This document shows, piece by piece, positions 28,190 through 50,916 of a DNA stretch of 51,070 bases. The notes below the pieces were generated by a model. The model did not search any database and was not told the origin of the DNA. It worked only from the letters and a program-made list of their open reading frames with translations. Numbering within the stretch: the stretch's first letter is position 1; every line of letters starts with the position of its first letter. Position numbers and translations under genes: made by a program. This DNA comes from a virus, in the IMG/VR virus record IMGVR_UViG_3300010279_000002, positions 1 to 51,070 of that record; one strand, written 5' to 3'.

Positions 28190-28199
28190 CCCTTCGACA

Positions 28200-28514
28200 T
28201 CAAATGTTGAAAGAGTGTATTCGGTCTTTATTGGCCGTAGCCCTCAAAGATAAGCCGCTTGTGTCAAGCCCCGATGCCACGGCCGCTTCGAACCAATGTT
28301 GCACAAAGGTCTTTTCGCACATGAGCCTTTCTTGAAGTTCAATCAGGGCGATGATGTCGGTTTCCCAATCCTTTGCATCAACTTCCTTGCAGAACACCAT
28401 CGAATGCGGGGAAATTCCCCATCTGATGATGTCTTTGCCGTTAGAGGTCACAAGGAATCCGACAGTCTTGAAGTCATTGTCTTTTACGATAGTTGCTTTC
28501 ATTGTTGCAAGCAT
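28200..28514 (-). CDS. Hypothetical protein, first gene of the accessory operon
   Basis: 104 aa with ATG at 28514, 42 bp downstream of a minus-strand -7 box. Confidence 0.5.
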   Translation of the reverse strand: MLATMKATIVKDNDFKTVGFLVTSNGKDIIRWGISPHSMVFCKEVDAKDWETDIIALIELQERLMCEKTFVQHWFEAAVASGLDTSGLSLRATANKDRIHSFNI

Positions 28515-28536
28515 TTAATTGTTCTTGTTGCGTTCC

Positions 28537-28551
28537 GTGTTATAGTAACAC
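28537..28551 (-). promoter_or_regulatory. 15-bp inverted-repeat element (minus-strand reading GTGTTACTATAACAC), copy B
   Basis: Perfect gtgtta-N3-taacac. It lies 4 nt downstream of the minus-strand -7 box. Confidence 0.5.
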
Positions 28552-28555
28552 ATCG

Positions 28556-28563
28556 CAAAGGTA
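28556..28563 (-). promoter_or_regulatory. Candidate -7 box TACCTTTG for the accessory operon
   Basis: The plus strand reads caaaggta, matching TAnnTTTG on the minus strand. Confidence 0.45.
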
Positions 28564-28609
28564 GTGAATATTTTTAATAAAACAACTATTTTGCAAGAAA
28601 ATTTGTGCA

Positions 28610-28622
28610 TTTGCATTGCAAA
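28610..28622. promoter_or_regulatory. Perfect 13-bp palindrome TTTGCATTGCAAA (copy 2)
   Basis: Identical to 16356..16368 and located between the divergent promoters. Confidence 0.5.
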
Positions 28623-28632
28623 ATGTTCAAAA

Positions 28633-28647
28633 GTGTTCGATAACTCC
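28633..28647 (+). promoter_or_regulatory. Degenerate copy of the 15-bp element (GTGTTCGATAACTCC)
   Basis: About 11/15 matches to GTGTTACTATAACAC. Confidence 0.3.
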
Positions 28648-28662
28648 AAGCAATTCTTTCGC

Positions 28663-28677
28663 GTGTTACTATAAAAC
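28663..28677 (+). promoter_or_regulatory. 15-bp element GTGTTACTATAAAAC, copy C
   Basis: 14/15 matches to the reverse complement of copy B. It lies 5 nt upstream of the plus-strand -7 box. Confidence 0.45.
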
Positions 28678-28682
28678 GATTG

Positions 28683-28690
28683 TAACTTTG
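28683..28690 (+). promoter_or_regulatory. Candidate -7 box TAACTTTG for the head operon
   Basis: Matches TAnnTTTG, 48 bp upstream of the ATG at 28738. Confidence 0.45.
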
Positions 28691-28737
28691 AGCCGTTGAT
28701 TTTTGTTACACCATAACACATTTAATTCATCACAATT

Positions 28738-37100: not shown

Positions 37101-38279
37101 GAGAAAATCAAGAAGAATTGGAAGAAATTGGGGGAAAGTACGGAAGCATCGTTCAAGTTCGTGGTCGATGCCGTCAATTCTTGTGATTTTCTCAAGGAAG
37201 CCATCGGTGATGTGGGCGCGACTGCCATATCATCCATGACAACAGTGGCGGCCACATCCATTGCGGTGGCCACGGCTATCAAGACGGCCGAAAAGTCAAG
37301 TGTCATCCTTGCCATCATCCAAGCGGCGCTTGTGGCGGTGCAAGCCGTTGTCAATGTGGTGAAGTCCATCGTGGGCAATCAGGATGCGAAGCTGGAAAAG
37401 CAAATCCAAAAGTGGAAAGGTGCGGTGGATGACCTGAAAAACGCCTATGCGCAATTGTCATGGGAGATAGACAAGGCATTAGGTGGTGATGTCTATAAAT
37501 CCCAACAAGAGGCCATCAAGAACATGCAGACCCAACAGGCGAATCTTTTGAGGATGCAACAGGCCGAAAGGGAGAAAAAGAAGTCCGATTCTGACAAAAT
37601 CCGGGATTACAAGGAACAATATGCCGAATTGACCCGCCAAATCGAAGACATGTATGACGAGATAGCCAATGACATCTTGCAGACCACGGCAAAGGATTTT
37701 GCGGATGAATTGGGTGATGCCCTTGCTGAAGCCTTTGAAAAGGGTGAAGACGCTTCGAAAGCCTTTGAGGAAACGGTCAATGATGTCTTGAGGAATACGA
37801 TCGTCAACCAGTTGAAAAAGAATTTCCTTGAAAAGCAGTTGCAAAGCGCGTTGGACAATCTGCAAGATTCGATGGGGTATTGGAACGGGGACAATTTTAT
37901 CTTCAATGGCCTGACGGATGCGGACATACAGCAGTTCAAGGCAAAGGTGGCGGCCGCGAAGGACGGCTACATGCAAGCGATGGAGATTTACAAGAGCTTG
38001 TTCAAGGACTTGACTGGCGAGGAGGAAACGGAAGATTCCCTTTCCGGCGCGGTAAAGGGCGTGACCGAGGAAACCGCGAACATCGTTGCCGGGCAACTCA
38101 ATGCCATCAGGGTCAATCAGGTGGAAGCCGCGGACATCATGCGTCAACAGCTCATGTCCCTGAATCAGATTGCCAACAATACGGCATACAACTATCACCT
38201 TGCCAAACTTGACCGTGTTGTTTCCTTGCTTGAAAGCATGGGGGCCGAAGGGACAATGAGGGCGCAGGGTCTTTCATAA
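34110..38279 (+). CDS. Tape measure protein
   Basis: 1389 aa with long coiled coils, an Ala/Thr-rich repeat (AETAETAAVTAETAAETANATATGAATAAK) and hydrophobic segments. Confidence 0.9.
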   Translation: MSDITGGGLSFKSTMDNEQMDAAIAETLRRVQGFSDATVAGGAAIGSAFAGTADDIRQALSEIGEACEAHETEIARLQAKYETLEGKLGKAFDEGRDDELFALQEERAAIKGSIAIHENLLKEYRRASDELETYASHIEESANEAGKAGDRHVTLRTKIRELREEMIEMEMAGQRGTAEYHALQEEVGRLTDAYGDATAQANILAHDQRGMQGLISAFSGVSGAASAAQGALSLFGTENENIQKVMLKVQSLMAITVGLQQVQQTLDKDSAFQLVTLNGLKDVWAKMVAAATGAETAETAAVTAETAAETANATATGAATAAKNAKAAASESAAVASGVEAAAQTAETGAAVAGTAANITLAGAFRAVGVAIKSIPVFGWIIAGVTALVSAISLLSKKAREAKKAQEEFSKSMIENSYKPIGRIQQLSNAWQELGDNIEEKNKFIEHNKKAFDELGVAVKGVTDAENLLVANKDAFIQAQVAKAKSMVYFEQTHEKVKQLMKLEEQYNAMHDKVQRTVYMGGTAGGGSSITYEVDNTKKEKKKAEIDALRKEITDGYTNATKEEKAGLDALNNAGIEAAGSYADGTVGAIEQAIAKKQTALKILTNAEDYKAGLKEIEDLQKQLANITGGTKTSGMTKDPFKEKLDKMRSEYQRFAKWVNSGDAILVRSANQEFAGLLKEGATYIDYLKRQRDLILEVDVANRTKAQNAQLRSLNDAIAEETRKTVLDTFNTELNDALSNAKTAIDMLNIIEQKRKELANDGTEVDAAKGQALDEAEQSAKDKLAQDTAALLEDYAGYAEKRKAIDERYNSDIALLNKARIEAQTDAERQAIEEAIANRNRQYQNDMRGSGNADYEAMLSEYGSFEQKKQAIIDEYDEMRRIAQEQGNTEMMNRLNDAQAKAISALATSELTSTEIWTNLFSNLDELTASEIETLITEIESRFDDLSGVFNPIDLQQVREKLNEAKAVLMQDNPFKQMGQAIKAIFKDAGDDSKTSAEKIKKNWKKLGESTEASFKFVVDAVNSCDFLKEAIGDVGATAISSMTTVAATSIAVATAIKTAEKSSVILAIIQAALVAVQAVVNVVKSIVGNQDAKLEKQIQKWKGAVDDLKNAYAQLSWEIDKALGGDVYKSQQEAIKNMQTQQANLLRMQQAEREKKKSDSDKIRDYKEQYAELTRQIEDMYDEIANDILQTTAKDFADELGDALAEAFEKGEDASKAFEETVNDVLRNTIVNQLKKNFLEKQLQSALDNLQDSMGYWNGDNFIFNGLTDADIQQFKAKVAAAKDGYMQAMEIYKSLFKDLTGEEETEDSLSGAVKGVTEETANIVAGQLNAIRVNQVEAADIMRQQLMSLNQIANNTAYNYHLAKLDRVVSLLESMGAEGTMRAQGLS

Positions 38280-38288
38280 TTCAAGGAT

Positions 38289-38804
38289 ATGAGGATTGAA
38301 CAGAAACTTTTGAGGATGGCCGCCCGGCAAGATGCATGTCGGGCCGGCCTTGACAAGCTGGCCGGGATGACCGACCGCAATGACATGGTGAATCTTTACT
38401 TTGAAAACATTGATTTCTGTCTGTCAAAGGACTTTCCTGAAAATGCCGTTATCGCGGCCAATTTCGGGGACATCATCAACGAATGGGGGATTTACCTTAA
38501 CAACTCGTTTGAAGTCCTGAATCGGCCTAAAATCGTGCTTCTTGGGGCAAGTCATGGCCGTGTTCGGATTGACGGCTACAATGTGGCTGAAATATTCGTC
38601 AAGCATGATTCCGTCATTGACTTAACGGCATCCGGGAATGCATTTGTGATGGTGGACATGTTCGATGACACGATATTGGAGATTCACGCATCCGACCGGG
38701 CAAAAGTGTGCGTGAACCACTATGGGGGTGAAATCCATCAGGAAAGGATGGGTGAGGCCATTGTCAGAATCAGAGAGAAACAAAAAAAAGACTTATTGAT
38801 ATGA
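38289..38804 (+). CDS. Hypothetical protein between the tape measure and Dit genes
   Basis: 171-aa ORF with an ATG start. Confidence 0.5.
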   Translation: MRIEQKLLRMAARQDACRAGLDKLAGMTDRNDMVNLYFENIDFCLSKDFPENAVIAANFGDIINEWGIYLNNSFEVLNRPKIVLLGASHGRVRIDGYNVAEIFVKHDSVIDLTASGNAFVMVDMFDDTILEIHASDRAKVCVNHYGGEIHQERMGEAIVRIREKQKKDLLI

Positions 38805-40009
38805 ACACCAATAACATCTTGAATCTACCTTTCGATGAGGGTGATGGCTCTTTGGTTGCTTATGATTACAGCCAAAGCCGTGCGGATGGGGATGTCACCA
38901 ACGCGGCATTCGTGGCCGGAAAGAACGGCAATGCCATCAAGTTCACCGGGAGCGGATATTGTGAATTGTCGAAAGGCATCTTTGCGACCATCGGGGGCGC
39001 GGATTTTTCCATCCTCTTTTGGTTGCAATCCCTTGAAGTGGAGACCGGAAGCCCCACAAAGGGCATCTGGGTGCTGAATTTCGGGGGGCTGAACAACTTT
39101 GTCGAAGTGCCGATTGCGTTGAAGCCGGGTTCCTGGCACTCTGTGGCCATGACGAGGCGCGGCAACACTTTCACATTCTATGTCAATTCATCCATGGTTG
39201 TGACCATCAACCGGACAGGCACATTGCAGGGTATTTCCCTCAATCAAGACTATTATGGTGGTGATTTGTACGGCCTTTGTCTTATGGATGATGTCAAAGT
39301 GTACAACATCGCCTTGTCACAGGCCGAAATCATTGAGGAATTGTTATCCACGAAACAACAGGCATACTGGCTTGATGGCGTGGACTTCAAGGAATATGGC
39401 GTGTATGTGTCTGGGTCTCGCGGCATCCTGAACCGTCCGAAGATGAAAGCCCCGGCGGAGCTTTCGTGGGATAACTATCATGGCAAGGCTGTTGATTTAT
39501 ATCACAAATACCTTGAACCCCGTGAAATCACCCTTGATTGCTTCATCAAGGCTGAATCGAAGAATGCCTTTATCATCGCGGTTTCCCGATTCCAACAGCT
39601 TTTTGACAAGAGAGGAACAAACCGTCTGACCATTGATGTCCATCCGGTGAAGCCCTTGATTTATGAAGTCTATTGTCAGGATGTCATTGATGTCTCCAAG
39701 ACATGGAATGATGCCCTGATGGTCGGAACATTCCAATTGAAGCTGATAGAGCCGGAGCCGGTCAAGAGGATATTGAAGCATATCCGCATTTCGGAAGCCA
39801 CAAAGACTTGCACCATCACAATGACCACGGCGAAGACGGTGAACATCTATTGGGGTGACGGAAGCATTTCGGAAGATGTGTACGGCACGAATAAGACCAT
39901 CACGCATGATTATGCCGCCAACGGCGAATATTATCCCGTCATCGCCGGGTGCATTGATGAAATCGTATCTTTCAACACCAATGCCATTGTCATTTTCACT
40001 AAAATTTAG
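38801..40009 (+). CDS. Evolved distal tail protein: LamG/ConA-like lectin domain + Dit core + PKD-like domain
   Basis: The N-terminus ...AFVAGKNGNAIKFTGSGY...WHSVAMTRRGNTFTFYVN is LamG-like. The middle is paralogous to 40015..40455. The C-terminus IYWGDGS...THDYAANGEYYPVI is PKD-like. Confidence 0.6.
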   Translation: MNTNNILNLPFDEGDGSLVAYDYSQSRADGDVTNAAFVAGKNGNAIKFTGSGYCELSKGIFATIGGADFSILFWLQSLEVETGSPTKGIWVLNFGGLNNFVEVPIALKPGSWHSVAMTRRGNTFTFYVNSSMVVTINRTGTLQGISLNQDYYGGDLYGLCLMDDVKVYNIALSQAEIIEELLSTKQQAYWLDGVDFKEYGVYVSGSRGILNRPKMKAPAELSWDNYHGKAVDLYHKYLEPREITLDCFIKAESKNAFIIAVSRFQQLFDKRGTNRLTIDVHPVKPLIYEVYCQDVIDVSKTWNDALMVGTFQLKLIEPEPVKRILKHIRISEATKTCTITMTTAKTVNIYWGDGSISEDVYGTNKTITHDYAANGEYYPVIAGCIDEIVSFNTNAIVIFTKI

Positions 40010-40014
40010 GAGGT

Positions 40015-40455
40015 ATGGATATAACTTACACTTTCAATTCAGTAAACTTCAATACACATGGTGTTTATGTGTCCGGAAGCAACGGAATGTTAGGATTGCC
40101 ACCTAAAAAGATTGAAATTTTTGAATATCCCGGCGAATCGGGGAATGTACCGGATTTGGTACATGCGCATTTTGATGTGCGCACGATAGAATTGTCTTGC
40201 TTCATCAAGGCGGATTCGGCCGGTGCGCTTACGGCCAAGTTCAATGCTTTCGTTGGAATTTTTGAACAGACATCAACAAAAAGTTTGACGGCAACGATAG
40301 GAAGCGGTTCAAACGCAAAAACATTGTCATTCTTGGTCTATCTGAAAAGCGTTTCGGTCTTGAAGAAAACATTCTGTGATGGACTGAATGTTGGCACTTT
40401 CACATTAACCTTCATTGAACCAGATACATCTATCTATGAGGCAAATAACAGTTAA
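40015..40455 (+). CDS. Distal tail protein (Dit) paralogue
   Basis: 146 aa that aligns with residues about 190-330 of the preceding protein (GVYVSGS.G.L..P...; ..L.CFIKA.S; VGTF.L..IEP). Confidence 0.6.
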   Translation: MDITYTFNSVNFNTHGVYVSGSNGMLGLPPKKIEIFEYPGESGNVPDLVHAHFDVRTIELSCFIKADSAGALTAKFNAFVGIFEQTSTKSLTATIGSGSNAKTLSFLVYLKSVSVLKKTFCDGLNVGTFTLTFIEPDTSIYEANNS

Positions 40456-43400
40456 CAAACCAAACGGTTCAACCATACAATTGTCAAATAAGGAATTGCC
40501 ATGCACCATTGTATCCGCAAGGCAAGAGTGGACATTGAATGGTGGTGATCTGGTCAAGGTGACTGTCAAATCAGCGGTCACATTGGACTTGGGAATCGGT
40601 GATTCGATAAGCGTGTTCGGGCGCATTTACAAGATGAACCGATTGCCAAAGATTACCAAGACAAAAACGCATCTTCTGCAATATGAATGTGAATATGAGG
40701 GCATTCAATATGACCTTTTGCGTGTCACCTATGACTTGACCGTCGAAACCACGAGCAACACCTTGCAGGATGTTTCCGGGGATTCGTTCACGGGCAATCT
40801 GCAAGCATTCATGCGGATTCTCATCGCCAATGCTAACCGTGTCTTTCCCGGGGGCTGGTCTCTCGGGGTGTGTCCCGACACGGATGTGGAGACGAGGACA
40901 TTCGGGGAATCGGACAATTGCCTTTCTGTCTTGCAGGACCTTTGCGACAAGCATGATCTCCAATTTGAGATTGTCCACTCAGGCGGCAAGGCCACGATAA
41001 ACATCAAGCAAGTGGGGCAAATACTACCATATACATTCCAATATGGCAAGGGAAAGGGGCTTTATTCCCTGACAAGAGAGAATGTGTCATCCTCTAACAT
41101 CATCACGCGGTTAAAGGTGCGCGGGTCGGCTGATAACATCACCAACAAATATAGGTCAGACCGTCTCCTGCTTCCGGGCAAGAGCAAATCGACATCCTAC
41201 ATCGAGGATGCCACGGCCATTGCCAAATATGGTGTGTATGAAGCCACGAAGATCTTTGACATCAAGCCGACATTCACGGGGCATGTCGAAACGGTTTCAT
41301 CCATCCTTGAATTTGTGGACACATCCGTCACATTCGACCTCAATGCCGTGGACGGGCAAGGCCAAACCATATATTTGCTTCCGGGTGTGGCGGCGGTCAT
41401 TCATTTCAATTCCGGGAATCTTGCTGGTTATGAATTTGAGATTGCAAAGTATGACCACGCAACGCACAAGTTCAAGTTGAAGAAATACACGGATGCCCGC
41501 GGCGCGGTGTTTCCAAGCGAGACAAGCACGGCATTTCAATTCGCGGCCGGTGATGAATATAAGATTCTGCAAATCACATTGCCCGATGCCCTCATAACGG
41601 CTGCGGAAAACAGGCTGCTGGAGGAAGCGGAAATATACTACAATCAGAACAGTCAGCCGAAAGTCAAATACAGTCTTTCCATCGCGAAAGAATACCTTGA
41701 AAACCTTGTCGGCGGTTCGGGAACGATTGTCAATGTGTTCACACCCGGCGATTACTTGCCAATCAAGGATGATGACATCGGCGTTGACAAGTCCGTCCGC
41801 ATCAAGTCCTTTGAACGGGATTTGATTGAGGAATACAAGTATAACTTGACCATTTCCGACACGGTGACAACGGCCATGATCAACCGTGTAATTTCCGGAT
41901 TGACAGAGATTGACAAGATTATTAAGTTCAATGATTTGCAAGACCCTGCAAGAGCAAGGGCAAATTGGCGCACAAGCCGGGAATTGCTTGACATGGTGTT
42001 CGATAGCGAGGGGGATTATTACACCGAGAAAATCAAGCCGCTTTCCATTGACACGCAATTGCTTTCGGTGGGTGCGAAGTCTATGCAATTCGGTCTTGTG
42101 GGAACTGTCTTTGAGCCGAACTTCGGCGGCAACAAGAATTCAATGAAAGTCACCGGCGGCACGCTTGTTCACTATACCATTGATGTACAACAGGCGGTGT
42201 CGTGGACATTGGCGAACAATACATTCACATTCCAGAACGATTCGGATGCGTTCTATATTTATGCGAAATGCTCAAGGACAACCAACGCCGGAACAATTCT
42301 GTTCAGTACGCAACAAATCCCTTGCGAATCAGAGCCGGATTATTACCATTTCTGGATTGGCGTTCTTCACGCCGTTGATTCCGAAACGGGTGTCCGCGAC
42401 ATCTCATTGTCGTATGGATTCACGATGATAAACGGGCGTTACATCACGACCGGAAGAATCCAAAGCGCGGATGGCAAGAATTACATTGATCTGGATGAAA
42501 ACAAAATCCGTTTCGGCAATGATTCTTGTTACATAGATTGGAATGTGACCCGGAACGGTCAGTTCTCAATGCGCAATGTCAAGATTGTGTCCGGCTCTGG
42601 CGAATCATACGACATCCCGGTCTATCGCGGTGATTGGAAGGATACAACGATGTACTATTCTGGTGATACGGTGACATATTCTGATGGCACTTCATCGGCA
42701 ACATATATGTACATCAATTCGACACCGACAATCGGTCATCTTGTGACAGAAACGGCATATTGGAAGCCTTATGCATCCGGTGGCGCAAAGGGTGACAAGG
42801 GTGACAAGGGTGACAAGGGTGACAAGGGTGACAAGGGTGACAAGGGAGATAAGGGAGATAATGGAGATAATGGAGGCAAGGGAGATGCCGGTGATGATGG
42901 ACAGTCATCATTCAAGTCTATTGTTTTCAAGCGTTCAAGCACAACACCAACAACGCCAACGGGCGGTTCGTATTTATCACCCGTTCCATCCGGATGGAGT
43001 GATGGCGTGCCATCTGGTGAAGCGCAATTGTGGATGTCAACCAGAATCTTCACAAGTGACGGTCTTACCCCACAACAAAACGCTTGGACAACGCCAAGAC
43101 AAGTAACGGACACCGCCGACATTGACTTTGAATTTTCCGCCATTGGAAGCAATCCGGGCAACCCTACAAGCAACCCATCTAATTGGCACAATACGGCAAC
43201 GGCATCCGACATCTGGATGGCGGTGCGCAAGTGCAAGAATGGCACTTGGGGAAGTTGGGAAGTCAGCAAAATCAAAGGCGAAAAAGGTGACCCCGGCGAA
43301 GATGGCGCAAACGGTTCAAGCATCGAAGTTCAATTTTCGGTCAATGGAACATCTTCTTGGCACGCGACATTCCAAACCGGTGACAAGTATATGCGTGAAC

Positions 43401-45205
43401 GGGTCGGTTCTGGTTCGTGGAGTTCGGCAATCAAGATTGTCGGCGAAAATGGTCAAGATGGTCAAGACGGGCAGGATGGCGCGGATGGTTCACATACATC
43501 ATTTGTGTTCCAAGCTGCGGAATCACAACCGGCGAAGCCGACAAGCACTTTACCAATTCCATCCGGATGGGATGATGAACCGCCTATTTGCGACATCGTT
43601 TCACCGACATACACCGGAAATTGGGTTGTCAACGGAAAGACCTTGACATCAAACGCAATCAGTCATTCCGGGTCAACTTGGGAAAAGATTCAGATCGTGA
43701 CCACAAAGGAGAACACCAAAGTGATGGTTCGAATCTTCGCTTCATCAGAAGCCAACTATGACTTTGGTTACATCTGTCCGCTTGATACGGCACAAAGCAC
43801 ATCAAATTACCTTGCAAGGGTGTCCGGTGTGCAAAGCGCACTTGTGACCATCAACATTCCGACATCCGGAACACACTATTTCTATGTTGGGTATACCAAG
43901 GATGGTTCAGGCACGGGAAATGATGACAAGATTGTCGTGAAGATTCTTGACACACCAAGAACTTGGATGACTTGCGCGGTTGTTTCTGCAAGTGGCGTTG
44001 CTGGAACTTGGACAACACCGGTTCTTCTTTCCGGGCAAGATGGAAACAACGGAAACGATGGTCGTGACGGACGGGATGGCAAATCACCATCATCACCATA
44101 TCGCGGAGAATATGCAAGCACCACCACATATTATGGGTGCGACTATCGTTGTGATGTGGTCAAATACCAAGGCGCATATTATCGTGCCAGACCGGATGCG
44201 CCGCAATCACCTTTTATCGGCGTATTGCCGACCAATACTTCATATTGGGAACAGTTTGGTGCAAGTTATGAGAACATTGCGACCGGCTTGTTACTTGCCG
44301 AGGAAGCCAACATTGCGAATTTCTTGTTCCGCAACGGCGACATGGTGTCCCAATCCGGTAAAAGCGGAGCGGAAGATTTGAAGTTGGATGGCAAGAATGG
44401 CGTGATAATTTTGGGCGGCGGTCTGATGAGATTGACGAAAGACTCGTTGCGAATGTTCTCGGATGGTGTCACGAAAGTCTCGATACAGAATGTCTCGGTC
44501 GGTGACTATGACCAAACACTCCTTAAAGCATCGGAAACCCTTTCCGGTAATGTTTCTTCACAACAACATTCGCTATATATACCATCAACTTCTGGTGCAT
44601 ACACACTTTCAGCGACGGTGTTGAACAAGAATCTTGGCGTATTGGACGTGGGCGACCAAATTACATTCACGCAAGCCGACATATTAATCTACGTTCCGCA
44701 GATTGCATCCGCAGAAAACGTAACCATGTCTTTTTCGTCACCTGTATTCATTATCGAATTGTTATCTAATGGCAATGTTATACGCACCGCATATATATCA
44801 GGCGGCAAGACCATAACATCCGGGGAGTCCTTAATGTTATCGCTTCCGTCGGTATCGGCATTCAACCATATTGTGTCAGCCGAAGACGTTGGCTCTTATG
44901 CGATAAGAATTCGTACAGCGGCCTCAAGTTCCATTCGTGTATCGTGTTCCAAGGCTGGCATTGTTCTTACCATCCCCATCACACTTACGTTGTCCATGTC
45001 GGTCGCAAAGTCCAATTTTGAAAAAACCATCATTGGCAATGATGGTATCCTGATGACATTCGGCGATGGTGCATTGGCAAATAGTGGATATTTGATTTTC
45101 AATAAAAAAAACTTCGCGGTTGGCTTTGGTGATCGTTTGTTCATGATTGATGCCGGTGGTATGTATAAAAGTATGGATGGAGGAAAGACATTGAATGAAA
45201 TATGA
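40436..45205 (+). CDS. Tail-associated (Tal-like) / tail fibre protein with four collagen-like Gly-X-Y segments
   Basis: About 1590 aa from the ATG at 40436. The N-terminus resembles a phage minor structural/tail endopeptidase-type domain. The collagen runs are GAKGDKGDK..., GEKGDPGEDGANG, GENGQDGQDGQDGADG and GQDGNNGNDGRDGRDGKS. Confidence 0.8.
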   Translation: MRQITVNKPNGSTIQLSNKELPCTIVSARQEWTLNGGDLVKVTVKSAVTLDLGIGDSISVFGRIYKMNRLPKITKTKTHLLQYECEYEGIQYDLLRVTYDLTVETTSNTLQDVSGDSFTGNLQAFMRILIANANRVFPGGWSLGVCPDTDVETRTFGESDNCLSVLQDLCDKHDLQFEIVHSGGKATINIKQVGQILPYTFQYGKGKGLYSLTRENVSSSNIITRLKVRGSADNITNKYRSDRLLLPGKSKSTSYIEDATAIAKYGVYEATKIFDIKPTFTGHVETVSSILEFVDTSVTFDLNAVDGQGQTIYLLPGVAAVIHFNSGNLAGYEFEIAKYDHATHKFKLKKYTDARGAVFPSETSTAFQFAAGDEYKILQITLPDALITAAENRLLEEAEIYYNQNSQPKVKYSLSIAKEYLENLVGGSGTIVNVFTPGDYLPIKDDDIGVDKSVRIKSFERDLIEEYKYNLTISDTVTTAMINRVISGLTEIDKIIKFNDLQDPARARANWRTSRELLDMVFDSEGDYYTEKIKPLSIDTQLLSVGAKSMQFGLVGTVFEPNFGGNKNSMKVTGGTLVHYTIDVQQAVSWTLANNTFTFQNDSDAFYIYAKCSRTTNAGTILFSTQQIPCESEPDYYHFWIGVLHAVDSETGVRDISLSYGFTMINGRYITTGRIQSADGKNYIDLDENKIRFGNDSCYIDWNVTRNGQFSMRNVKIVSGSGESYDIPVYRGDWKDTTMYYSGDTVTYSDGTSSATYMYINSTPTIGHLVTETAYWKPYASGGAKGDKGDKGDKGDKGDKGDKGDKGDNGDNGGKGDAGDDGQSSFKSIVFKRSSTTPTTPTGGSYLSPVPSGWSDGVPSGEAQLWMSTRIFTSDGLTPQQNAWTTPRQVTDTADIDFEFSAIGSNPGNPTSNPSNWHNTATASDIWMAVRKCKNGTWGSWEVSKIKGEKGDPGEDGANGSSIEVQFSVNGTSSWHATFQTGDKYMRERVGSGSWSSAIKIVGENGQDGQDGQDGADGSHTSFVFQAAESQPAKPTSTLPIPSGWDDEPPICDIVSPTYTGNWVVNGKTLTSNAISHSGSTWEKIQIVTTKENTKVMVRIFASSEANYDFGYICPLDTAQSTSNYLARVSGVQSALVTINIPTSGTHYFYVGYTKDGSGTGNDDKIVVKILDTPRTWMTCAVVSASGVAGTWTTPVLLSGQDGNNGNDGRDGRDGKSPSSPYRGEYASTTTYYGCDYRCDVVKYQGAYYRARPDAPQSPFIGVLPTNTSYWEQFGASYENIATGLLLAEEANIANFLFRNGDMVSQSGKSGAEDLKLDGKNGVIILGGGLMRLTKDSLRMFSDGVTKVSIQNVSVGDYDQTLLKASETLSGNVSSQQHSLYIPSTSGAYTLSATVLNKNLGVLDVGDQITFTQADILIYVPQIASAENVTMSFSSPVFIIELLSNGNVIRTAYISGGKTITSGESLMLSLPSVSAFNHIVSAEDVGSYAIRIRTAASSSIRVSCSKAGIVLTIPITLTLSMSVAKSNFEKTIIGNDGILMTFGDGALANSGYLIFNKKNFAVGFGDRLFMIDAGGMYKSMDGGKTLNEI
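42791..42844 (+). repeat. Six perfect tandem copies of GGTGACAAG (Gly-Asp-Lys)
   Basis: Read directly. The run is flanked by degenerate 9-mers out to about 42904. Confidence 0.9.
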
Positions 45206-45224
45206 TTGAGTATCCGGGTAATTT

Positions 45225-45239
45225 GTGTTATATTAACAC
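45225..45239 (+). promoter_or_regulatory. 15-bp element GTGTTATATTAACAC, copy D (also a weak terminator stem)
   Basis: Perfect gtgtta-N3-taacac, followed by GTTTTTATT and then a -7 box 8 nt downstream. Confidence 0.45.
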
Positions 45240-45247
45240 GTTTTTAT

Positions 45248-45255
45248 TAACTTTG
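45248..45255 (+). promoter_or_regulatory. Candidate -7 box TAACTTTG for the DGR cassette
   Basis: Matches TAnnTTTG, 21 bp upstream of the ATG at 45276. Confidence 0.45.
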
Positions 45256-45275
45256 CAAATAAACTAATTTTCATT

Positions 45276-45551
45276 ATGTGTAACACTCGTAGCGGTGAAA
45301 TGGTTTCACCACAAATTGCGCGAATGGGTTTAATAAGTAATCTTGGAAAGAAAGACTTCCAGATGGCTGACGGAACAGCATTCAACATCAAGAATGATGG
45401 AAATTCGGCGGTTATGCTTGAAGTGCAGCTTGCCGGGATGGGTGACAACGAAACCGTCACCACATTGTTCGAAGTAGGGTGGAATCCTGAAATTGTCAAA
45501 GCGGTGAAGCAAACTTCATTGTCATCGTTAAACTTAAAATGGGGGTACTAA
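45276..45551 (+). CDS. Hypothetical protein, first gene of the DGR cassette
   Basis: 91 aa and beta-rich. Its stop lies 1 nt before the target-gene ATG. It does not resemble Avd. Confidence 0.5.
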   Translation: MCNTRSGEMVSPQIARMGLISNLGKKDFQMADGTAFNIKNDGNSAVMLEVQLAGMGDNETVTTLFEVGWNPEIVKAVKQTSLSSLNLKWGY

Positions 45552-45552
45552 T

Positions 45553-46866
45553 ATGGGACTTGTCATTGGAATCGGCGATGCGAAGCCAAAATTCGCATAC
45601 GATTACTATTATGGCATTGAGTGGGATGCGACCGTCTCCAATCCGAACCCGACACGAATCGGCAAGGATGAATTGCATCAGTCTCTCCCGCTTCAATGCC
45701 TGATGCGCCGGTGCATCCTCAATGATGACGGCACGGTCAATTACTATCTTCATGCCAATGATTCCACGAAACGGGACAATGGCGTGGCCGCAAATCTTGA
45801 TGGCTCCGATGGTCAGTATATGGTGGATTTGCCGGACATGTATGTCCGCTTTGAAACCGATGGTGACAAATCGCGTTGCCTGATGTCCGAACACCCGCTT
45901 CCGGGGTTCACCCTTTGGGGCAGGGACTTTGTTTCGGCCGTGGAAGCAACCGTGCAGAGAAGCACACACAAACTTGCTGCCGTGGTGAACACCGATGCGG
46001 ATTATCGCGGCGGTGGCAACAATGAGGCATGGGATGGGACATACCGTTCAATGCTGGGGACGCCCGCAACGGGAATATCGCTTACCAATTTCAGGGCTTA
46101 TGCCCGAAATCGCGGCTCCGTAAATTGGAATTGCAACACCTATCACATCCATCGCAAGCTGTGGTGGCTCTTTGCTGTGGAATACGCCACATTTAATTCG
46201 CAAAAGGCATTCAAGGCGGAACTTGATGCGAATGGCCATCATCAGGGTGGTTTGGGCAGTGGTGTCACGACACTCAATTCATCCAAGTGGAATGCCTTTA
46301 ATGGCTATTATCCATTTGTCCCTTGCGGTATTACAAATGAATTGGGCAATCATACCGGCAACGTGGATTACACCATGCCGGAAGAATATGATACCACTAC
46401 AACCGTGGTTCATGTCCCGTCTTATCGTGGCGTGGAAAATCCCTTTGGCCACATTTGGAAGTGGACGGATGGTTGCAAGTGTCTGATTCAGTCGGAATCC
46501 GATGGCGGCAAGTCGCTTTTCTATGTGTGCGATGATGTTTCCAGCTTCACAAGTTCGGGCATCGCAAACTATGAGTTGCGCGGCGAACTTCCGAGGATAG
46601 AGGGATATGTCAAGGCAATATGTTTGGGTGAACATGGTGAAATCATGCCATCGGCAGTTGGTGCCGGTTCAACCACATATTTCTGCGATTACTTCTATAC
46701 ATCCATTCCGTCAAGTGGTGTGAGTGAGCGCGGCGTGTTGTTCGGCGGTTATGCGGCTTGTGGTGCGTCTGCGGGCTTCGTGTGTGCGTATACGTATTAC
46801 GCGGCTTCGAATACGGTTGCGGATATCGGTTCTCGGCTTTGCTATTCCGCAAATCGGGCGGCCTAA
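45553..46866 (+). CDS. DGR target protein 1 (437 aa) with C-terminal variable region; C-type-lectin/FGE-like fold expected
   Basis: The C-terminus ...GVLFGGYAACGASAGFVCAYTYYAASNTVADIGSRLCYS is encoded by VR1. Confidence 0.85.
   Translation: MGLVIGIGDAKPKFAYDYYYGIEWDATVSNPNPTRIGKDELHQSLPLQCLMRRCILNDDGTVNYYLHANDSTKRDNGVAANLDGSDGQYMVDLPDMYVRFETDGDKSRCLMSEHPLPGFTLWGRDFVSAVEATVQRSTHKLAAVVNTDADYRGGGNNEAWDGTYRSMLGTPATGISLTNFRAYARNRGSVNWNCNTYHIHRKLWWLFAVEYATFNSQKAFKAELDANGHHQGGLGSGVTTLNSSKWNAFNGYYPFVPCGITNELGNHTGNVDYTMPEEYDTTTTVVHVPSYRGVENPFGHIWKWTDGCKCLIQSESDGGKSLFYVCDDVSSFTSSGIANYELRGELPRIEGYVKAICLGEHGEIMPSAVGAGSTTYFCDYFYTSIPSSGVSERGVLFGGYAACGASAGFVCAYTYYAASNTVADIGSRLCYSANRAA
46730..46843 (+). repeat. 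DGR variable region 1 (VR1)
   Basis: 114-bp ungapped alignment with TR. There are 17 mismatches, every one at a TR adenine. Confidence 0.9.
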
Positions 46867-46940
46867 ATCGGCGCGAAGCGCACAAATCGAAATGTGACAT
46901 TTTGAGTGTGGAATGAAAAAGAAAGGGTTGTCCGGTGTCG

Positions 46941-47054
46941 GCGGCGTGTTGTTCGGCGGTAATGCGAATAATGGTGCGAATGCGGGCTTCGTGTATGCGA
47001 ATACGAATAACACGGCTTCGAATACGAATGCGAATATCGGTTCTCAGCTATGCT
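46941..47054 (+). repeat. DGR template repeat (TR)
   Basis: 114 bp containing 27 adenines, mostly in AAT/AAC codons (…GGNANNGANAGFVYANTNNTASNTNANIGSQLC). It lies between the target gene and the RT. Confidence 0.9.
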
Positions 47055-47207
47055 TGTAAAAATATAGTGCATACCGGAAACCTTGCCACAAAAACAATCT
47101 AATGGGGATTGAATGAGTTGAGCAATCAACGGCAAAAGATTACATACCGAAAAACGGCTTTGGTAATGCCATAAGGCCATGAAGAAGCCTATTATTCAAG
47201 CAAACCA

Positions 47208-48239
47208 ATGAAGCGAATTGCGAACCTCTTTGATAAGGTCATAAGCCTTGAAAACTTGCGCCTTGCGGATGACAAAGCCCGCAAGGGCAAGTTGAAGTCT
47301 TATGGTGTCCGCATCCATGACAAGAACCGGGATGCGAACTTGTTGCATTTGCATGATGAATTGGTGAACGGTACATTTCACACTTCAAAATATCACATCT
47401 TCACCATCTTTGAGCCGAAAGAAAGGCAGATATTCCGATTGCCTTACTATCCTGACAGAATCTTGCATCATGCCATCATGAATGTGATGGAACCGATTTG
47501 GGTGGGAATCTTCAACGGCGACACCTATTCTTGCATCAAGAACCGGGGAATCCATGCTTGTGCAAGGGCGGTGCGCTATGCATTGAAAACCGACCCCAAA
47601 GGAACAGTCTATTGCCTGAAAATGGACATCCGCAAGTTCTATCCATCCATTGACCATGACATCCTGAAAAGCATCGTGCGCCGGAAGCTGAAAGATGAAA
47701 GGCTTTTGGCATTGCTTGATGAAATCATTGATTCCGTGCCGGCGGGTGTTCCCATCGGCAACTACCTTTCCCAATACTTTGCCAATCTTTATTTGGCGTA
47801 TTTCGACCATTGGTTGAAAGAAAGGAAAGGTGTCAAGCATTATTTCCGGTATGCCGATGACATCGTGATTCTATCTGATGACAAGGATTTCTTGCATTCA
47901 CTCTTGCATGATATCCGCGCCTATCTTCGTGACAATCTGAAATTGAAAGTCAAGAAGAATTATCAGGTGTTCCCGGTTGATGCGCGTGGAATTGACTTCG
48001 TAGGTTATGTGTTCCGTCACACCCATACAAGGTTGCGCAAATCCATCAAACAGGCACTTTGCCGCCGGGTGGCGATTCTCAACAAGAGAAAGATTGTGCC
48101 TACAATGGAGAAGTACAAGCAGCAAATATGTTCGTGGTGGGGCTGGTGCAAATACTGCAACTCAATCAATCTTTTGAACAAACTTTCTAAATCATTTCCT
48201 TATGAGATTAAATTCGTTAGAGCCAAACACCCATTATGA
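47208..48239 (+). CDS. DGR reverse transcriptase
   Basis: 343 aa. Contains the RT motifs, including PIGNYLSQYFANLYL (the DGR-type [I/L]GxxxSQ motif) and FRYADDIVIL (YADD). Confidence 0.9.
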   Translation: MKRIANLFDKVISLENLRLADDKARKGKLKSYGVRIHDKNRDANLLHLHDELVNGTFHTSKYHIFTIFEPKERQIFRLPYYPDRILHHAIMNVMEPIWVGIFNGDTYSCIKNRGIHACARAVRYALKTDPKGTVYCLKMDIRKFYPSIDHDILKSIVRRKLKDERLLALLDEIIDSVPAGVPIGNYLSQYFANLYLAYFDHWLKERKGVKHYFRYADDIVILSDDKDFLHSLLHDIRAYLRDNLKLKVKKNYQVFPVDARGIDFVGYVFRHTHTRLRKSIKQALCRRVAILNKRKIVPTMEKYKQQICSWWGWCKYCNSINLLNKLSKSFPYEIKFVRAKHPL

Positions 48240-48585
48240 TGTGGTGAATGGCCGGCCGCTTGCCATCGAAAGAGACAATGACGGTTCAACCATCATCCGT
48301 TTCAACATCACCGAGAAAACGGAAGTGCCGGAGGGCAAGAAGAAAGCCGAATTGGTGGGGTACAATTGCCGGGAAATCCGCATTTGGGATGCCCCCACAA
48401 AGGTGAATATCAAGCGGGCATTCATCCGTTCCGTCATTGATGAATCGGCCGAATTTGACCTTGTGAACTCCTACAACAAGCACATCTTGGCAATCCGTCA
48501 GGATGATGCCGCCGTGGAAGAATACAAGGAGTTTTTGGCATTCACCGAGGATGTGGATGCGGCCATCCTTGAAATGTTGAACTAA
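48202..48585 (+). CDS. Hypothetical protein
   Basis: 127-aa ORF that overlaps the RT 3' end by 38 nt. Confidence 0.45.
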   Translation: MRLNSLEPNTHYDVVNGRPLAIERDNDGSTIIRFNITEKTEVPEGKKKAELVGYNCREIRIWDAPTKVNIKRAFIRSVIDESAEFDLVNSYNKHILAIRQDDAAVEEYKEFLAFTEDVDAAILEMLN

Positions 48586-48599
48586 AACATGGACGGCCT

Positions 48600-48971
48600 A
48601 TGCGATTTAGTGAACTTGGCATCACTTCCGATGTAATCATCGGCAAGGGTATTGACATGGATGAACTCTTTGGAAAAAGGATTCTCATTGAAAAGACCCT
48701 CATAAAGCCGTCAAATTTTCCGGGCAAGAATACATCGGGGTTGAGGATGCAGATGCAAGTGGTTCTTGCTTCATTTGAGGATGAGCCGGATGCAAACGGG
48801 GATTTCTACAAGAAGAATGCGGATTGAACGCCATGTGGCGAAAGGCGGTCATGTTTCACCGGGTCAGACAACTTGATTGCGGCCATCCAAGAAGCGGAAT
48901 CAAAGGGCATCGGCATTTATCCATTGGACACTACAATCGTAAAGGTCGGAAAGTGTTTTCAATTTACCTGA
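48600..48971 (+). pseudogene. Small ORF interrupted by one in-frame TGA (48825..48827)
   Basis: 75 codons, then TGA, then 47 further sense codons in the same frame (TPCGERRSCFTGSDNLIAAIQEAESKGIGIYPLDTTIVKVGKCFQFT), ending at TGA 48969..48971. No other ORF covers 48828..48971. Confidence 0.45.
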
Positions 48972-48977
48972 AAAGTG

Positions 48978-49562
48978 ATGATACCTTTCAATGATTTCGG
49001 TTTGACAATCCGCGCCAAGATTGTCCAAGGCCTTTCAAGCATCATCGGCGGTCTGGTGATTGCGTTTGAGACGAGCGTAGTCTTTCTCATCCCGTGCCTG
49101 ATCGCCGTGGGGCTTGATGTGATAACGGCCTACAATCTTGGGCAGCGTGTTCACCGGAAATACCCCGGTCAATCGGACGGGAAGTTCAAGTCTGTCCACA
49201 AGTCCCAAATCATGTACACGATGATAACCATCTTCCTGTGCATCATGCTCGCGGCCTATGTGGACACGCTTGTCCTGATAAGCGGCAATGGTTTTGCCGT
49301 CCGTTTCGTGGTGGGCGTTTTCCTTTTTTATGAAGTTTGGTCTTGCCTTGAAAATTGGTCAAGCGAGAATGACAACAAGATTGCTAAAGCCTTGCAGCGC
49401 ATCATGGTGAACAAGATCGAAAGGCATCTTGATGTTCCGCTTTCCGACATACTCACACCGGATGACAAGAAGCCGGAACACCCCGGACATCATCATGGCA
49501 AGCCCGGACATGATGACAACAACAATGTAAATTCCGAAGATTATGATGAACGACAGGATTAA
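48978..49562 (+). CDS. Holin (holin_tox_secr-like) with a His-rich C-terminal tail
   Basis: Three to four TM helices, the motif FYEVWSCLENWSSEN, and the tail PEHPGHHHGKPGHDDNNN. It lies directly upstream of the amidase. Confidence 0.65.
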   Translation: MIPFNDFGLTIRAKIVQGLSSIIGGLVIAFETSVVFLIPCLIAVGLDVITAYNLGQRVHRKYPGQSDGKFKSVHKSQIMYTMITIFLCIMLAAYVDTLVLISGNGFAVRFVVGVFLFYEVWSCLENWSSENDNKIAKALQRIMVNKIERHLDVPLSDILTPDDKKPEHPGHHHGKPGHDDNNNVNSEDYDERQD

Positions 49563-50145
49563 GGTTCTTTTGGACAATGGCCACGGGATCGACACGGCCG
49601 GGAAAAGAAGCCCGGATGGGAAATTGCGTGAATATGATTGGAACAGAAAGACCGCGAATGTAACCCTTTCCATTCTGAAAGAAAGGGGCGTGGATGTGGA
49701 ATTGGTAGTTCCTGAAATTACTGATATTCCCCTTTCCGAAAGATGTTCCCGTGCCAATGCCATCGCAAGGGCTTGCGGGGCATCGAATGTGGTTTATGTG
49801 TCCATTCATGTCAATGCCGCCGGCAATGGCAAACAGTGGATGAATGCCCATGGGTGGTCTGTATTCGTGTACGACAAGCCGTCATCCAAGTCGGTGATGC
49901 TTGCCAATGCACTTTTTGACAAGGCAGCGGAAAAGGGGATCAAGACAAGAAAGCCCGAAGCCTTGAAGAAATATTGGAATGCCAATTTCGCCGTGTTGCG
50001 GCAGACGGTATGCCCGGCCGTTCTGGTCGAACATTTCTTCATGGACAACCGGGATGATTGCGCATATCTTCTTACGGAAAAATCCGTGCGTGAATGCGCG
50101 GAAGTCCTTGCGGATGGAATCGTTCAATACATCAACAATCTTTGA
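49543..50145 (+). CDS. N-acetylmuramoyl-L-alanine amidase (endolysin)
   Basis: LLDNGHGIDTAGKRSP...VSIHVNAAG...AVLVEHFFMDN is an Amidase_3-like pattern. Confidence 0.85.
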   Translation: MMNDRIKVLLDNGHGIDTAGKRSPDGKLREYDWNRKTANVTLSILKERGVDVELVVPEITDIPLSERCSRANAIARACGASNVVYVSIHVNAAGNGKQWMNAHGWSVFVYDKPSSKSVMLANALFDKAAEKGIKTRKPEALKKYWNANFAVLRQTVCPAVLVEHFFMDNRDDCAYLLTEKSVRECAEVLADGIVQYINNL

Positions 50146-50146
50146 A

Positions 50147-50728
50147 ATGAAAAGGCTTATATTGATGATGTCGCTTTGTCTCATGGTGGCGGGGTGCGGA
50201 ACATCCCGCCATTTGAGCAAGCACAAGATTGAATCCGTCCGTGACAGTTCCCATGTGGAGACATCCAAGACGTACAAGACCGAGACATTCACGGACACAA
50301 GCAAGACCGAATCAGGGAAAGTGACAATCACGGTAATCGAGTTTTTCCAGCCGGCATCGGGTGACAGCTTGCGCAACCATGCCGCCGACATCCCGGCCAC
50401 GGACATCAATTTGCAGAACATCGGAAACATCACAAATGCCGGGGCGGTCAAGAGCATCCGCCAAAAGGTCATTGAATCTGAATCAGTGCAGAAAGGGGAA
50501 AGCCGCGAATCAGAGGAAAAGGATGAATCCGGGATGGAAACATCGGTTGCGGTCAAGACGGATGAATCAGTGGTGGAAAAGGTTATTGAAGCCCCGAAGC
50601 CGAACCGGGTGAAATATGTCTTTTATCTTGCCTTGCTTGCGGTCGGGGTGCTTGCATATTTCAAGCGCGTGCCGATTCTCAATGCAATCCGGAAAATCCT
50701 TGCCGGGGTGAGGAAGTTGCTTTCCTGA
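50147..50728 (+). CDS. Unimolecular-spanin-like lipoprotein with a C-terminal TM anchor
   Basis: MKRLILMMSLCLMVAGCG is a lipobox signal. The C-terminal helix is YVFYLALLAVGVLAYF. It is the last gene of the lysis cassette. Confidence 0.5.
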   Translation: MKRLILMMSLCLMVAGCGTSRHLSKHKIESVRDSSHVETSKTYKTETFTDTSKTESGKVTITVIEFFQPASGDSLRNHAADIPATDINLQNIGNITNAGAVKSIRQKVIESESVQKGESRESEEKDESGMETSVAVKTDESVVEKVIEAPKPNRVKYVFYLALLAVGVLAYFKRVPILNAIRKILAGVRKLLS

Positions 50729-50736
50729 AAAATCGC

Positions 50737-50744
50737 TATCTTTG
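50737..50744 (+). promoter_or_regulatory. Candidate -7 box TATCTTTG
   Basis: Matches TAnnTTTG, 9 bp after the spanin stop. Confidence 0.3.
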
Positions 50745-50790
50745 CAGTCACATTGTTGCGGCCGTGGAGTTGCACCACGGTTAAATGTAG

Positions 50791-50823
50791 GAATCCGGGG
50801 ATTGTTGCCCCCGGGTTCTTTTT
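50791..50823 (+). terminator. Strong rho-independent terminator
   Basis: gaatccgggg / ccccgggttc stem of about 10 bp with an 8-nt loop, followed by TTTTT. Confidence 0.7.
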
Positions 50824-50892
50824 GTAAATGGCCGTGATTTTGCGGATGGTTACGAATGGACTTACAAAAGAGAACACCCCCAAAAGAGGTGT

Positions 50893-50916
50893 TTTTCGTG
50901 TGCAAATTCGTGTACA
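50893..50916 (+). repeat. Tandem TTTCGTGTGCA / AATTCGTGTACA repeats; candidate integrase arm-type sites
   Basis: caaattcgtgtaca at 50903..50916 matches the 142..166 repeats. A degenerate copy lies immediately upstream. Confidence 0.4.

Follow-up and report, generated by a model that had tools for sequence, protein, structure and literature searches.

The question raised by positions 45,276 to 48,239 of the viral record IMGVR_UViG_3300010279_000002 (IMG/VR; positions 1 to 51,070, that is 51,070 nucleotides, referred to here as the window) is whether the two repeats and the reverse transcriptase (RT) gene found there form a diversity-generating retroelement (DGR) and, if so, which proteins are rewritten by it. 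To our knowledge, no natural system other than DGRs carries out targeted protein hypermutation in prokaryotes or their viruses, and DGRs are most common in phages of gut Bacteroidota. The first-pass annotation of the sequence had read the segment as a DGR cassette consisting of a target gene with a variable region (VR1), a template repeat (TR) and an RT gene. This reading holds with respect to the type of RT, the adenine-specific pair of repeats, the occurrence of the same arrangement in about 70 relatives, and variation at VR1. Our analysis takes it further: the locus is very probably a DGR that lacks the accessory protein Avd, belongs to a temperate siphovirus-like phage of Bacteroidales (~51 kb), is guided by RNA as proposed below, and rewrites two genes rather than one.

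The repeats themselves provide the first line of evidence. A repeat search of the window returned the same pair at the same coordinates (Table 1) as a direct repeat of 114 nt with 85% identity, and a base-by-base recount confirmed that all 17 mismatches between TR and VR1 are located at TR adenines, with none at the other 87 positions. Given 27 adenines in a TR of 114 nt, the hypergeometric probability of such a distribution is 1.1e-13. The substitutions from TR to VR1 are A to T in eight, A to G in seven and A to C in two cases. As stated earlier, the TR adenines mainly reside in AAT and AAC codons; 20 of the 27 sit in the ten AAY codons, and 26 of the 27 are found at codon position 1 or 2. 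A stop codon cannot be reached by adenine substitution in any variable codon, and the theoretical repertoire of VR1 comprises up to ~6e14 protein variants. The assignment of VR1 to the extreme C-terminus of the 437-aa target protein was likewise correct.

Not every one of the 17 mismatches, however, should be ascribed to mutagenesis. The VR ends with ...TCGG(T/G)TC(T/G)CGGCTTTGCTT in all relatives, whereas the TR reads ...CAGC(T/G/A)(A/T)TGCTT, and the end CGGCTTTGCTT is also unchanged in a second variable region, VR2, which is described below. In one subgroup of relatives the TR has a G at the second of the two fixed sites, so that the difference there does not fall on an adenine. As this site is a synonymous Leu position, selection at the protein level cannot account for its fixation. 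The mismatches at TR 47046 and 47050 are therefore best regarded as fixed TR/VR differences similar to those between the initiation of mutagenic homing (IMH) element and its TR counterpart IMH*. Thus, the count of 17 adenine mismatches stands, but the number of mutagenic substitutions in VR1 is 15, and the transfer of information appears to stop between the last variable adenine (TR 47036) and 47046. Corresponding IMH*/IMH differences at the 3' ends of TR and VR have been described for phage BPP-1 (PMC3240598).

The second line of evidence is the RT. The 343-aa open reading frame (ORF), which had been assigned to the DGR type on the basis of its IGNYLSQ and YADD motifs, matches RVT_1 in Pfam (E 1.7e-16) and phrog_1423 in PHROGs (E 1e-122). 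The best match in the PDB is 8ub7, a 328-aa chain named only 'Reverse transcriptase' (E 1.8e-48, residues 2-328), in which IGSLTSQ and YMDD align with IGNYLSQ and YADD, respectively. The search output does not state a source organism, and we take this chain to be the Bordetella phage RT (bRT). Other classes of RT gave weaker matches in the PDB search (group II intron, 1e-19; retron-type, 9e-17; AbiK, worse than 1e-3; defense-associated RTs (DRT), much worse), and this comparison supports the earlier assignment to the DGR type. Within the phage genome collection the closest RTs are those of crAss-like phages, with up to 61.6% identity, and in IMG/VR there are >596 RT relatives, most of them on contigs of ~50 kb with the same layout. 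It might still be argued that the RT is of a different class (retron, group II intron or Abi/DRT defense) and that the repeats result from a duplication followed by ordinary divergence, as homologous RTs are labeled 'retron-type' in some database records and as no Avd was found. We consider the probability of this to be practically negligible. Besides the difference in E-values, which depends on 8ub7 being bRT, the mismatches are all located at adenines of one copy only and the pattern recurs in about 70 relatives; moreover, a permissive Rfam scan of 44800..48700 yielded neither intron RNA domains nor retron msr/msd, RT-17 being the sole match.

Comparison with relatives further indicates that the element has been active recently. 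All of the about 70 fetched loci with enough upstream DNA have a TR/VR pair of ~116 bp with 7-25 mismatches at adenines and 0-3 others. One contig, L099 (ENA ERZ28564082), is 99.5-99.99% identical to window 35508..50899. Between 45206 and 48239 the two differ at 17 nucleotides, all within the 114 bp of VR1; no difference is seen in the remainder of the target gene, in the spacers, in the TR or in the RT. An invariant VR1, which according to the first-pass annotation would have spoken against a DGR, is thus not what is observed. Relative to the TR common to both, the VR1 of L099 has changes at 15 adenines and one adjacent T, and the encoded target protein (P0121) is 97% identical to target 1, with all 11 residue differences in VR1. 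It is nevertheless conceivable that the element, although active until recently, is inactive in this particular genome, due to a defect of the RT or the RNA or to a missing host factor; absence of Avd and the frame shift of the C-terminal tail of the target relative to most relatives would be in line with this. We regard such a loss as unlikely, since the RT ORF is intact with its YADD and is nucleotide-identical to the RT of L099, whose VR1 differs, and since the TR, the spacer RNA and the IMH-like end are intact and match the family consensus. In addition, VR1 has no mismatch to TR outside of adenines, implying that the last homing event took place not long ago.

The DGR has a second target at a distance of 38 kb from the TR. 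When the window was scanned allowing mismatches at TR adenines only, a match was found at 8704..8779 with 11 mismatches at adenines and none at 56 non-A positions (P 3e-8); extending it by one base to 8703..8779 (TR 46979..47055) still left all mismatches at TR adenines. This region, VR2, covers 77 of the 114 TR positions, corresponding to the 3' two thirds, and encodes 26 residues close to the C-terminal end of a protein of 172 aa (target 2), allowing for up to ~2e11 variants. The limited coverage, the distance, and the lack of an evident hairpin downstream might suggest that VR2 is a decaying relic or a chance partial copy of the TR next to an otherwise real DGR. This is, however, highly improbable. 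VR2 is free of non-A mismatches and has retained both the reading frame and the IMH-like end of VR1. A further contig, L100, is 99.7% identical to window 7030..11403, and VR2 accounts for 10 of the 12 differences, each of the ten at a TR-A position, compared with two in the remaining 4298 bp. In 13 IMG/VR contigs with both loci, VR2 and the respective TR differ at 167 adenine and 4 non-A positions over 995 nt, and VR2 of Bacteroides phage Versailles matches the diverged TR of that phage over 107 bp with 14 mismatches at adenines and none elsewhere; in both cases the non-A positions of VR2 change along with those of its own TR. Based on the differences in L100, the 13 relatives tracking their own TR and the VR2 of Versailles, VR2 is to be considered a genuine, conserved and recently rewritten target. 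Similarly, close members among the 621 homologs of target 2 differ almost only in AGFVxAxTxxxASxAxAxxGSRLCF, which is the VR, and in a profile comparison homology between targets 2 and 1 was limited to 37 columns that again correspond to the VR.

What target 2 does is less evident. Neither Pfam nor sequence and profile comparison with the PDB returned a meaningful match. An AlphaFold2 model of the protein has a predicted local distance difference test (pLDDT) score of 79, with values <50 for VR residues 123-144. Foldseek searches with this model gave no PDB match and only uncharacterized viral proteins in BFVD, and no immunoglobulin (Ig) or C-type lectin (C-lec) fold was matched. The gene is preceded by genes for an SbcC-like nuclease/recombinase, RecT and a hydrolase of the metallo-beta-lactamase (MBL) fold, and is followed by two ORFs without assignment and a gene for a DnaD-like replication protein. 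Target 2 might be a second virion protein of the tail or a decoration protein, encoded outside the structural module, in which case both VRs would serve receptor recognition, as in Bacuni phages. The Versailles homolog is annotated as 'tail protein' by HHpred against PHROGs, phrog_11581 also matches the VR part of the tail protein, and DGRs with two adhesin-like targets are on record (PMC8143477, PMC10743442). On the other hand, the likeness to the tail protein is restricted to the 37 VR columns, and the gene is situated between the RecT and MBL-hydrolase genes and the replication genes, both here and in Versailles, and near a DNA methyltransferase gene in LoVEphage; furthermore, distal second VRs of other phages adjoin counter-defense genes (PMC12629997). 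A virion function is therefore possible, but doubtful. Alternatively, it might be speculated that the 172-aa protein is an intracellular early protein outside the virion, e.g. one that binds or inhibits variable host defense or takeover factors, within a system that altogether does without Avd and relies on an RNA scaffold with a pseudoknotted clamp bracketing the TR. Taken as a whole, this proposal is tentative and rather unlikely. If it were true, a single TR would diversify both a receptor-binding tip and a counter-defense protein.

Some neighboring genes may be mentioned in this context. A KilAC-domain antirepressor (11619..12449) and a C-5 cytosine DNA methylase (13047..14123; PF00145, E 2e-44) are encoded 3-4 kb downstream of VR2, which fits the published location of distal second VRs near counter-defense genes. 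The MBL-fold hydrolase (7579..8322) is located immediately upstream of target 2. An identity as the anti-Pycsar protein Apyc1, faintly flagged for the homolog on L100, was rejected, as the match in the window reached only E 0.09 and 12.7 bits against a cut-off of 50.

An RNA that may guide the process lies between the TR and the RT gene. In the spacer (Sp) between them, RNAalifold predicted a consensus fold from 48 distinct relatives (48-53 across the RNA analyses) with 29 pairs, 14 of which show compensatory changes. In this fold 98% of the cells are paired, versus 27-54% for slid controls, and none of 500 shuffles reached the observed values. A 5' clamp just upstream of the TR is predicted to form a duplex of 12 pairs with Sp, with 97% of cells paired and compensatory changes in six pairs; one of them occurs as four pair types (AU 26, UA 18, GC 7, CG 1). 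The homology between TR and VR starts two bases past the end of the clamp. At the opposite end, TGCTTG at the 3' end of the TR may pair with CAAGCA of Sp, and the strand predicted to serve as primer has an adenosine at its end, paired next to TR 47050. The spacer is also matched by the Rfam family RF03020 (RT-17), an orphan RNA motif found beside RT genes (Weinberg et al. 2017, PMC5737381). The match to 47079..47207 extends over the full model length and includes the conserved blocks ACCUUGCC...GGCAAAA...UGGUA...GAA...AAGCAAAC, but at 29 bits (E 0.0013-0.012) it misses the gathering score of 40.4 because of an insertion of 40 nt in the first hairpin, which forms two extra covarying hairpins. 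The spacer RNA thus behaves like a divergent relative of RT-17 that fails the curated cut-off.

These features suggest how the element might operate. An RNA spanning the TR and the 153-nt spacer would be transcribed, in which the clamp pairs with its Sp partner and the TR 3' end with CAAGCA. By analogy to BPP-1, the two duplexes would act as a stop element and as a template:primer duplex in the cis-primed reverse transcription carried out by the 343-aa RT, a priming chemistry that we infer from this analogy. The RT would copy the TR faithfully save at adenines, and the cDNA would replace the homologous variable region, with the boundary of the transfer in TCGGTTCTC, upstream of the two fixed TR/VR differences. 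Recipients would be the C-terminal 39 residues of the 437-aa tail protein in the case of VR1 and the 26 residues of the 172-aa protein in that of VR2.

In BPP-1, the complex of RT and Avd requires a TR:Sp template:primer duplex as well as a duplex of upstream sequence with Sp, the 'cPRT Stop' (bioRxiv 10.1101/2023.10.23.563531; PMC6182149). Among the best 25 families listed per scan for the 59 window ORFs (34 Pfam, 61 NCBIfam), there was no Avd (PF05635, 23S_rRNA_IVP / four-helix bundle), and the ORFs of 91, 127 and 48 aa, the last one lying over the TR, gave no hit to Pfam at E <= 0.1. In DGRs, Avd is common but not universal; for BPP-1 it is essential. The system described here may work independently of Avd. 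DGRs without AVD are documented for most zeta crAss-like phages (PMC12386605). The 91-aa and 127-aa ORFs were ruled out as Avd substitutes, since their homologs flank a tail-protein gene without RT in Porphyromonas phage005b.

Target 1 is assigned to a tail protein family, and its homologs with 28-44% identity occur in crAss-like phages ('tail-collar fibre'), Bacteroides phage Versailles and Porphyromonas gingivalis phages. No match to Pfam was obtained, and no meaningful one to the PDB by sequence or profile, including the solved DGR variable proteins. Based on the annotation of the homologs and the position in the genome, the part encoded by VR1 is presumably the receptor-binding tip. DGR variable proteins display their VR on a C-type lectin or Ig-like fold, and target 1 may have a C-type lectin fold as well. 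Contrary to what had been stated, the target gene does not directly follow the tail-fiber gene; an ORF of 91 aa lies in between, which shares 60% identity with the ORF located ahead of the homologous tail protein in phage005b (L003, PP754928; tail gene 3501..4871). The 127-aa ORF resembles the ORF following that gene. No RT or TR adjoins the tail gene of phage005b, and the equivalent of its VR, the C-terminus ...GFGCIATYREVNISHEDYAFRLCRG, appears frozen. This phage may either have lost the DGR or represent an ancestral state without it. As a further observation, the C-terminal tail of target 1 in the window (46844..46866) reads LCYSANRAA*, in another frame than LCFxPQIEAA* of most relatives, with the DNA (GCAAATCG) retained; the few residues after VR1 seem free to vary.

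The cassette was further described as preceded by a hairpin and a promoter box of its own. Both are present and conserved, but they belong to the tail-protein module. The box TAACTTTG fits TAnnTTTG, the -7 consensus of Bacteroidota. With 23 occurrences of TANNTTTG in the window against 23.1 expected, the box alone is not significant. However, all 52 distinct relatives, the RT-less Porphyromonas phage among them, have a TAnnTTTG box at a constant distance from the 91-aa ORF, and in each of the 52 a palindrome is placed between a TTTG and the -7 box, with arms that co-vary (e.g. GTATTA/TAATAC and GTTTCA/TGAAAC). The palindrome could be an operator or a hairpin. As the RT-less phage has both the box and the 91-aa ORF, these are part of the tail-protein module and not of the DGR. 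A scan for sigma-70 promoters and terminators was uninformative for this type of host. In a number of loci (L030, L038, L046, L056 and related ones), a strong GC hairpin with a T run after it (GGGCGGCAACAAAGCCGCCCCGCCTTTC) is located between the target gene and the TR and looks like a terminator, which implies that the TR RNA needs a promoter of its own there. The window has no such terminator-like hairpin and T run between target gene and TR.

Downstream of VR1, a short GC hairpin occurs in the window, and equivalents are found 20-35 nt past VR1 in most but not all relatives, with co-varying stems and loops of the GAA/GTAA type. Guo and colleagues reportedly described, in 2011, a hairpin or cruciform downstream of the VR in DGRs. 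An AAATCG(A) motif occurs three times in the spacer between VR1 and TR (46853..46895) and up to four times in relatives, among small GC hairpins. A conserved CAAATCG element following both VRs was considered as well and dropped, as it is not kept after VR2 in relatives.

Several points weigh against the reading of the locus as an RNA-guided, Avd-less DGR with two targets. The evidence for activity stems from comparing assemblies from different samples, not reads. The absence of Avd may mean that the priming model of BPP-1 does not apply or that an unrecognized factor takes the place of Avd. With regard to the RNA, the helix between the TR 3' end and Sp is weakly supported, since it is almost invariant with a single compensatory pair, and it crosses the clamp duplex, resulting in a pseudoknot topology unlike that of BPP-1. 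As for a separate promoter of the TR, a TTTG at a suitable distance was found in 23 of 46 relatives and a full TAnnTTTG in none. Folding z-scores of the hairpin after VR1 are not significant, and nothing convincing as a hairpin was seen downstream of VR2, either by folding z-scores or by comparing relatives. Finally, the AlphaFold2 model of target 1 reached a pLDDT of 33 from a shallow alignment of 34 homologs, all >=73% identical.

Table 1. Positions of the DGR components, targets and adjoining elements in the window. Structural and functional labels are predictions.
Feature	Position	Strand	Remarks
Palindrome GTGTTA-TAT-TAACAC, then -7 box TAACTTTG	45225..45239; 45248..45255	+	Likely promoter/operator of 91-aa ORF and target 1
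91-aa ORF	45276..45551	+	phrog_26422; conserved partner of tail protein, not DGR-specific
Target gene 1, tail protein, 437 aa	45553..46866	+	phrog_5302 'tail protein', E 5e-119
VR1	46730..46843	+	114 bp; residues 393-431 of target 1 (437 aa)
IMH-like VR1 3' end (TCGGTTCTCGGCTTTGCT)	46826..46843	+	Same in all relatives; versus TR: 46835 G/A, 46839 T/A
GC hairpin GCGC-GAA-GCGC	46871..46881	+	28 nt after VR1; candidate DGR target hairpin/cruciform
5' clamp GGTT-G-TCCGGTGT	46926..46938	+	Just upstream of TR; pairs with Sp 47071..47082
TR	46941..47054	+	27 adenines, 10 AAY codons; non-coding, next to RT gene
IMH*-like TR 3' end	47037..47054	+	Differs from VR at fixed sites
Spacer (Sp) RNA, 153 nt	47055..47207	+	Between TR and RT gene
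Sp helices	47051-56/47197-202; 47084-87/47131-34; 47156-61/47184-89	+	Consensus fold of relatives
Sp hairpins	47095-47111; 47117-47130; 47166-80	+	Consensus fold of relatives
DGR-type RT, 343 aa	47208..48239	+	IGNYLSQ and YADD; start codon 153 nt downstream of TR
Target gene 2, 172 aa	8334..8852	+	phrog_11581; early recombination/replication module
VR2	8703..8779	+	Residues 124-149 of 172; matches TR 46979..47055, same reading frame as VR1
VR2 IMH-like end	8761..8779	+	Same as VR1 end

The large terminase shares 69% identity with its counterpart in Porphyromonas phage005 and ~43% with those of Bacteroides and Alistipes siphophages. The window opens with an integrase and closes with lysis genes, and it also encodes RecT, a 1389-aa ORF of tape-measure size and a tail protein with a Prophage_tail domain. 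The relatives of the terminase and the layout from integrase to lysis genes indicate an essentially complete temperate phage of a Bacteroidales host. The exact degenerate TR/VR pattern was not matched in IMG/VR, and a search for near-identical DNA with 45276..48239 gave no match in the phage genome collection. Among GTDB genomes, the same degenerate pattern was matched once only, by a 2.8-kb contig (L004, CAYQBQ010000141.1). That contig is binned as 'uncultured Clostridium sp.' and carries the target, TR and RT region at 92% identity to the window phage. As all other indicators point to a Bacteroidales host, the Clostridium label is probably a binning artefact.

Two further regions of the window caught our attention. 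The 1596-aa tail protein (40415..45205) contains a collagen-like GDK/GDN repeat at 42785..42905. Its counterpart on L099 is 1574 aa long and aligns to the window with a break at 42833-42837, suggesting that the number of collagen-like repeats varies between near-identical phages. Over 42833..45205, L099 and the window differ by 17 substitutions. In addition, a block of minus-strand ORFs (24728..28721) inside the otherwise plus-strand structural region holds an ADP-ribosylglycohydrolase gene (25041..25814; PF03747, E 4e-40; in NCBIfam also Tri1-type ADP-ribosylarginine hydrolase). This block may be a moron or a counter-defense island.

As a DGR, the locus is ordinary and belongs to a well-known, very common kind in phages of gut Bacteroidota; DGRs are present in 43% of inducible Bacteroidota prophage species (PMC12629997). 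What makes it of interest is the conserved second target of the early region, the lack of Avd, and an RNA scaffold, supported by covariation, that links RT-17 to DGR function. A single TR supplies two unrelated protein scaffolds, including a small protein of the early region, and this second target could extend the function of DGRs from host recognition to the intracellular arms race. Lacking Avd yet keeping RNA duplexes analogous to those of BPP-1, the system would allow, as a natural test, the RNA-encoded parts of the mechanism to be told apart. The orphan RT-17 would gain a biological assignment as the spacer RNA of Bacteroidota phage DGRs.

With BPP-1, the element shares the RT clade, if 8ub7 is bRT, the adenine-specific transfer from TR to VR, the position of the VR at the 3' end of a tail-protein gene, fixed 3'-end differences between TR and VR like IMH*/IMH, and a structured spacer RNA after the TR. 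By position, the duplex bracketing the TR corresponds to the cPRT Stop, and that between TR 3' end and spacer to the template:primer duplex. In contrast to BPP-1, no Avd was found here among the families listed, target 1 is unrelated to Mtd in sequence, a second target exists 38 kb away, the duplexes cross instead of being nested, the IMH is not a GC-rich 14-mer, and the host belongs to Bacteroidales. The RF03020 model shares the conserved blocks and the position directly upstream of an RT gene, but is without pairings to the TR 3' end or an upstream clamp, both of which are predicted for the window phage. The DGRs of crAss-like phages (cr52_1, cr55_1, crAssphage LMMB; zeta) have the closest RTs (61.6%), the same target family (up to 44%) and the same order of target, TR and RT; however, crAss-like phages are podoviruses of ~100 kb, whereas the window represents a 51-kb temperate phage with an integrase. 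Hankyphage of Bacteroides/Phocaeicola similarly is a temperate phage of Bacteroidales with a DGR diversifying the tail fiber, the activity of which has been demonstrated experimentally (PMC12135933), but it is transposable and encodes Avd, while the window phage encodes an integrase and had no detectable Avd.

With respect to the second target, the adhesin-like second targets of Tentaclins and Bacuni phages (N-terminal C-lec plus Ig domains, or DUF1566/fimbrial-tip-like) are unlike target 2, which has no Pfam domain, no Ig/C-lec fold match and a VR near the C-terminus. The most similar arrangement is that of Bacteroides phage Versailles (ON453897, host B. caecimuris), in which a large tail protein, a small ORF, the target, TR, RT, a small ORF and lysis genes follow in the same order, and a second target of 193 aa with a VR matching the TR of this phage is encoded after SbcC-like, RecT-like and MBL-hydrolase genes. 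The two phages are only distantly related, with RTs 44%, targets 38% and small proteins 27% identical, and VR2 of Versailles extends over nearly all of the TR. The term DGR does not occur in any of the three papers that the full-text library searched returned for Versailles. Distal second VRs in Bacteroidota prophages have already been on record since 2025, when a study on inducible prophages of the gut described a second, distal VR close to counter-defense genes, e.g. a DNA methyltransferase gene, in four phage species of Bacteroidota (PMC12629997); a function or mechanism of the second target is not given in that study (Nature 2025). Homologs of the 172-aa protein occur in phages of the same study and in LoVEphage. 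These double-VR prophages (PV4-TP1, BI-TP1 and relatives of LoVEphage) thus share with the window phage a distal second VR in a gene near counter-defense or DNA-metabolism genes. They differ from it in belonging to other lineages with genomes of ~71 kb, while in the window phage the activity of VR2 is seen by way of near-clonal contigs.

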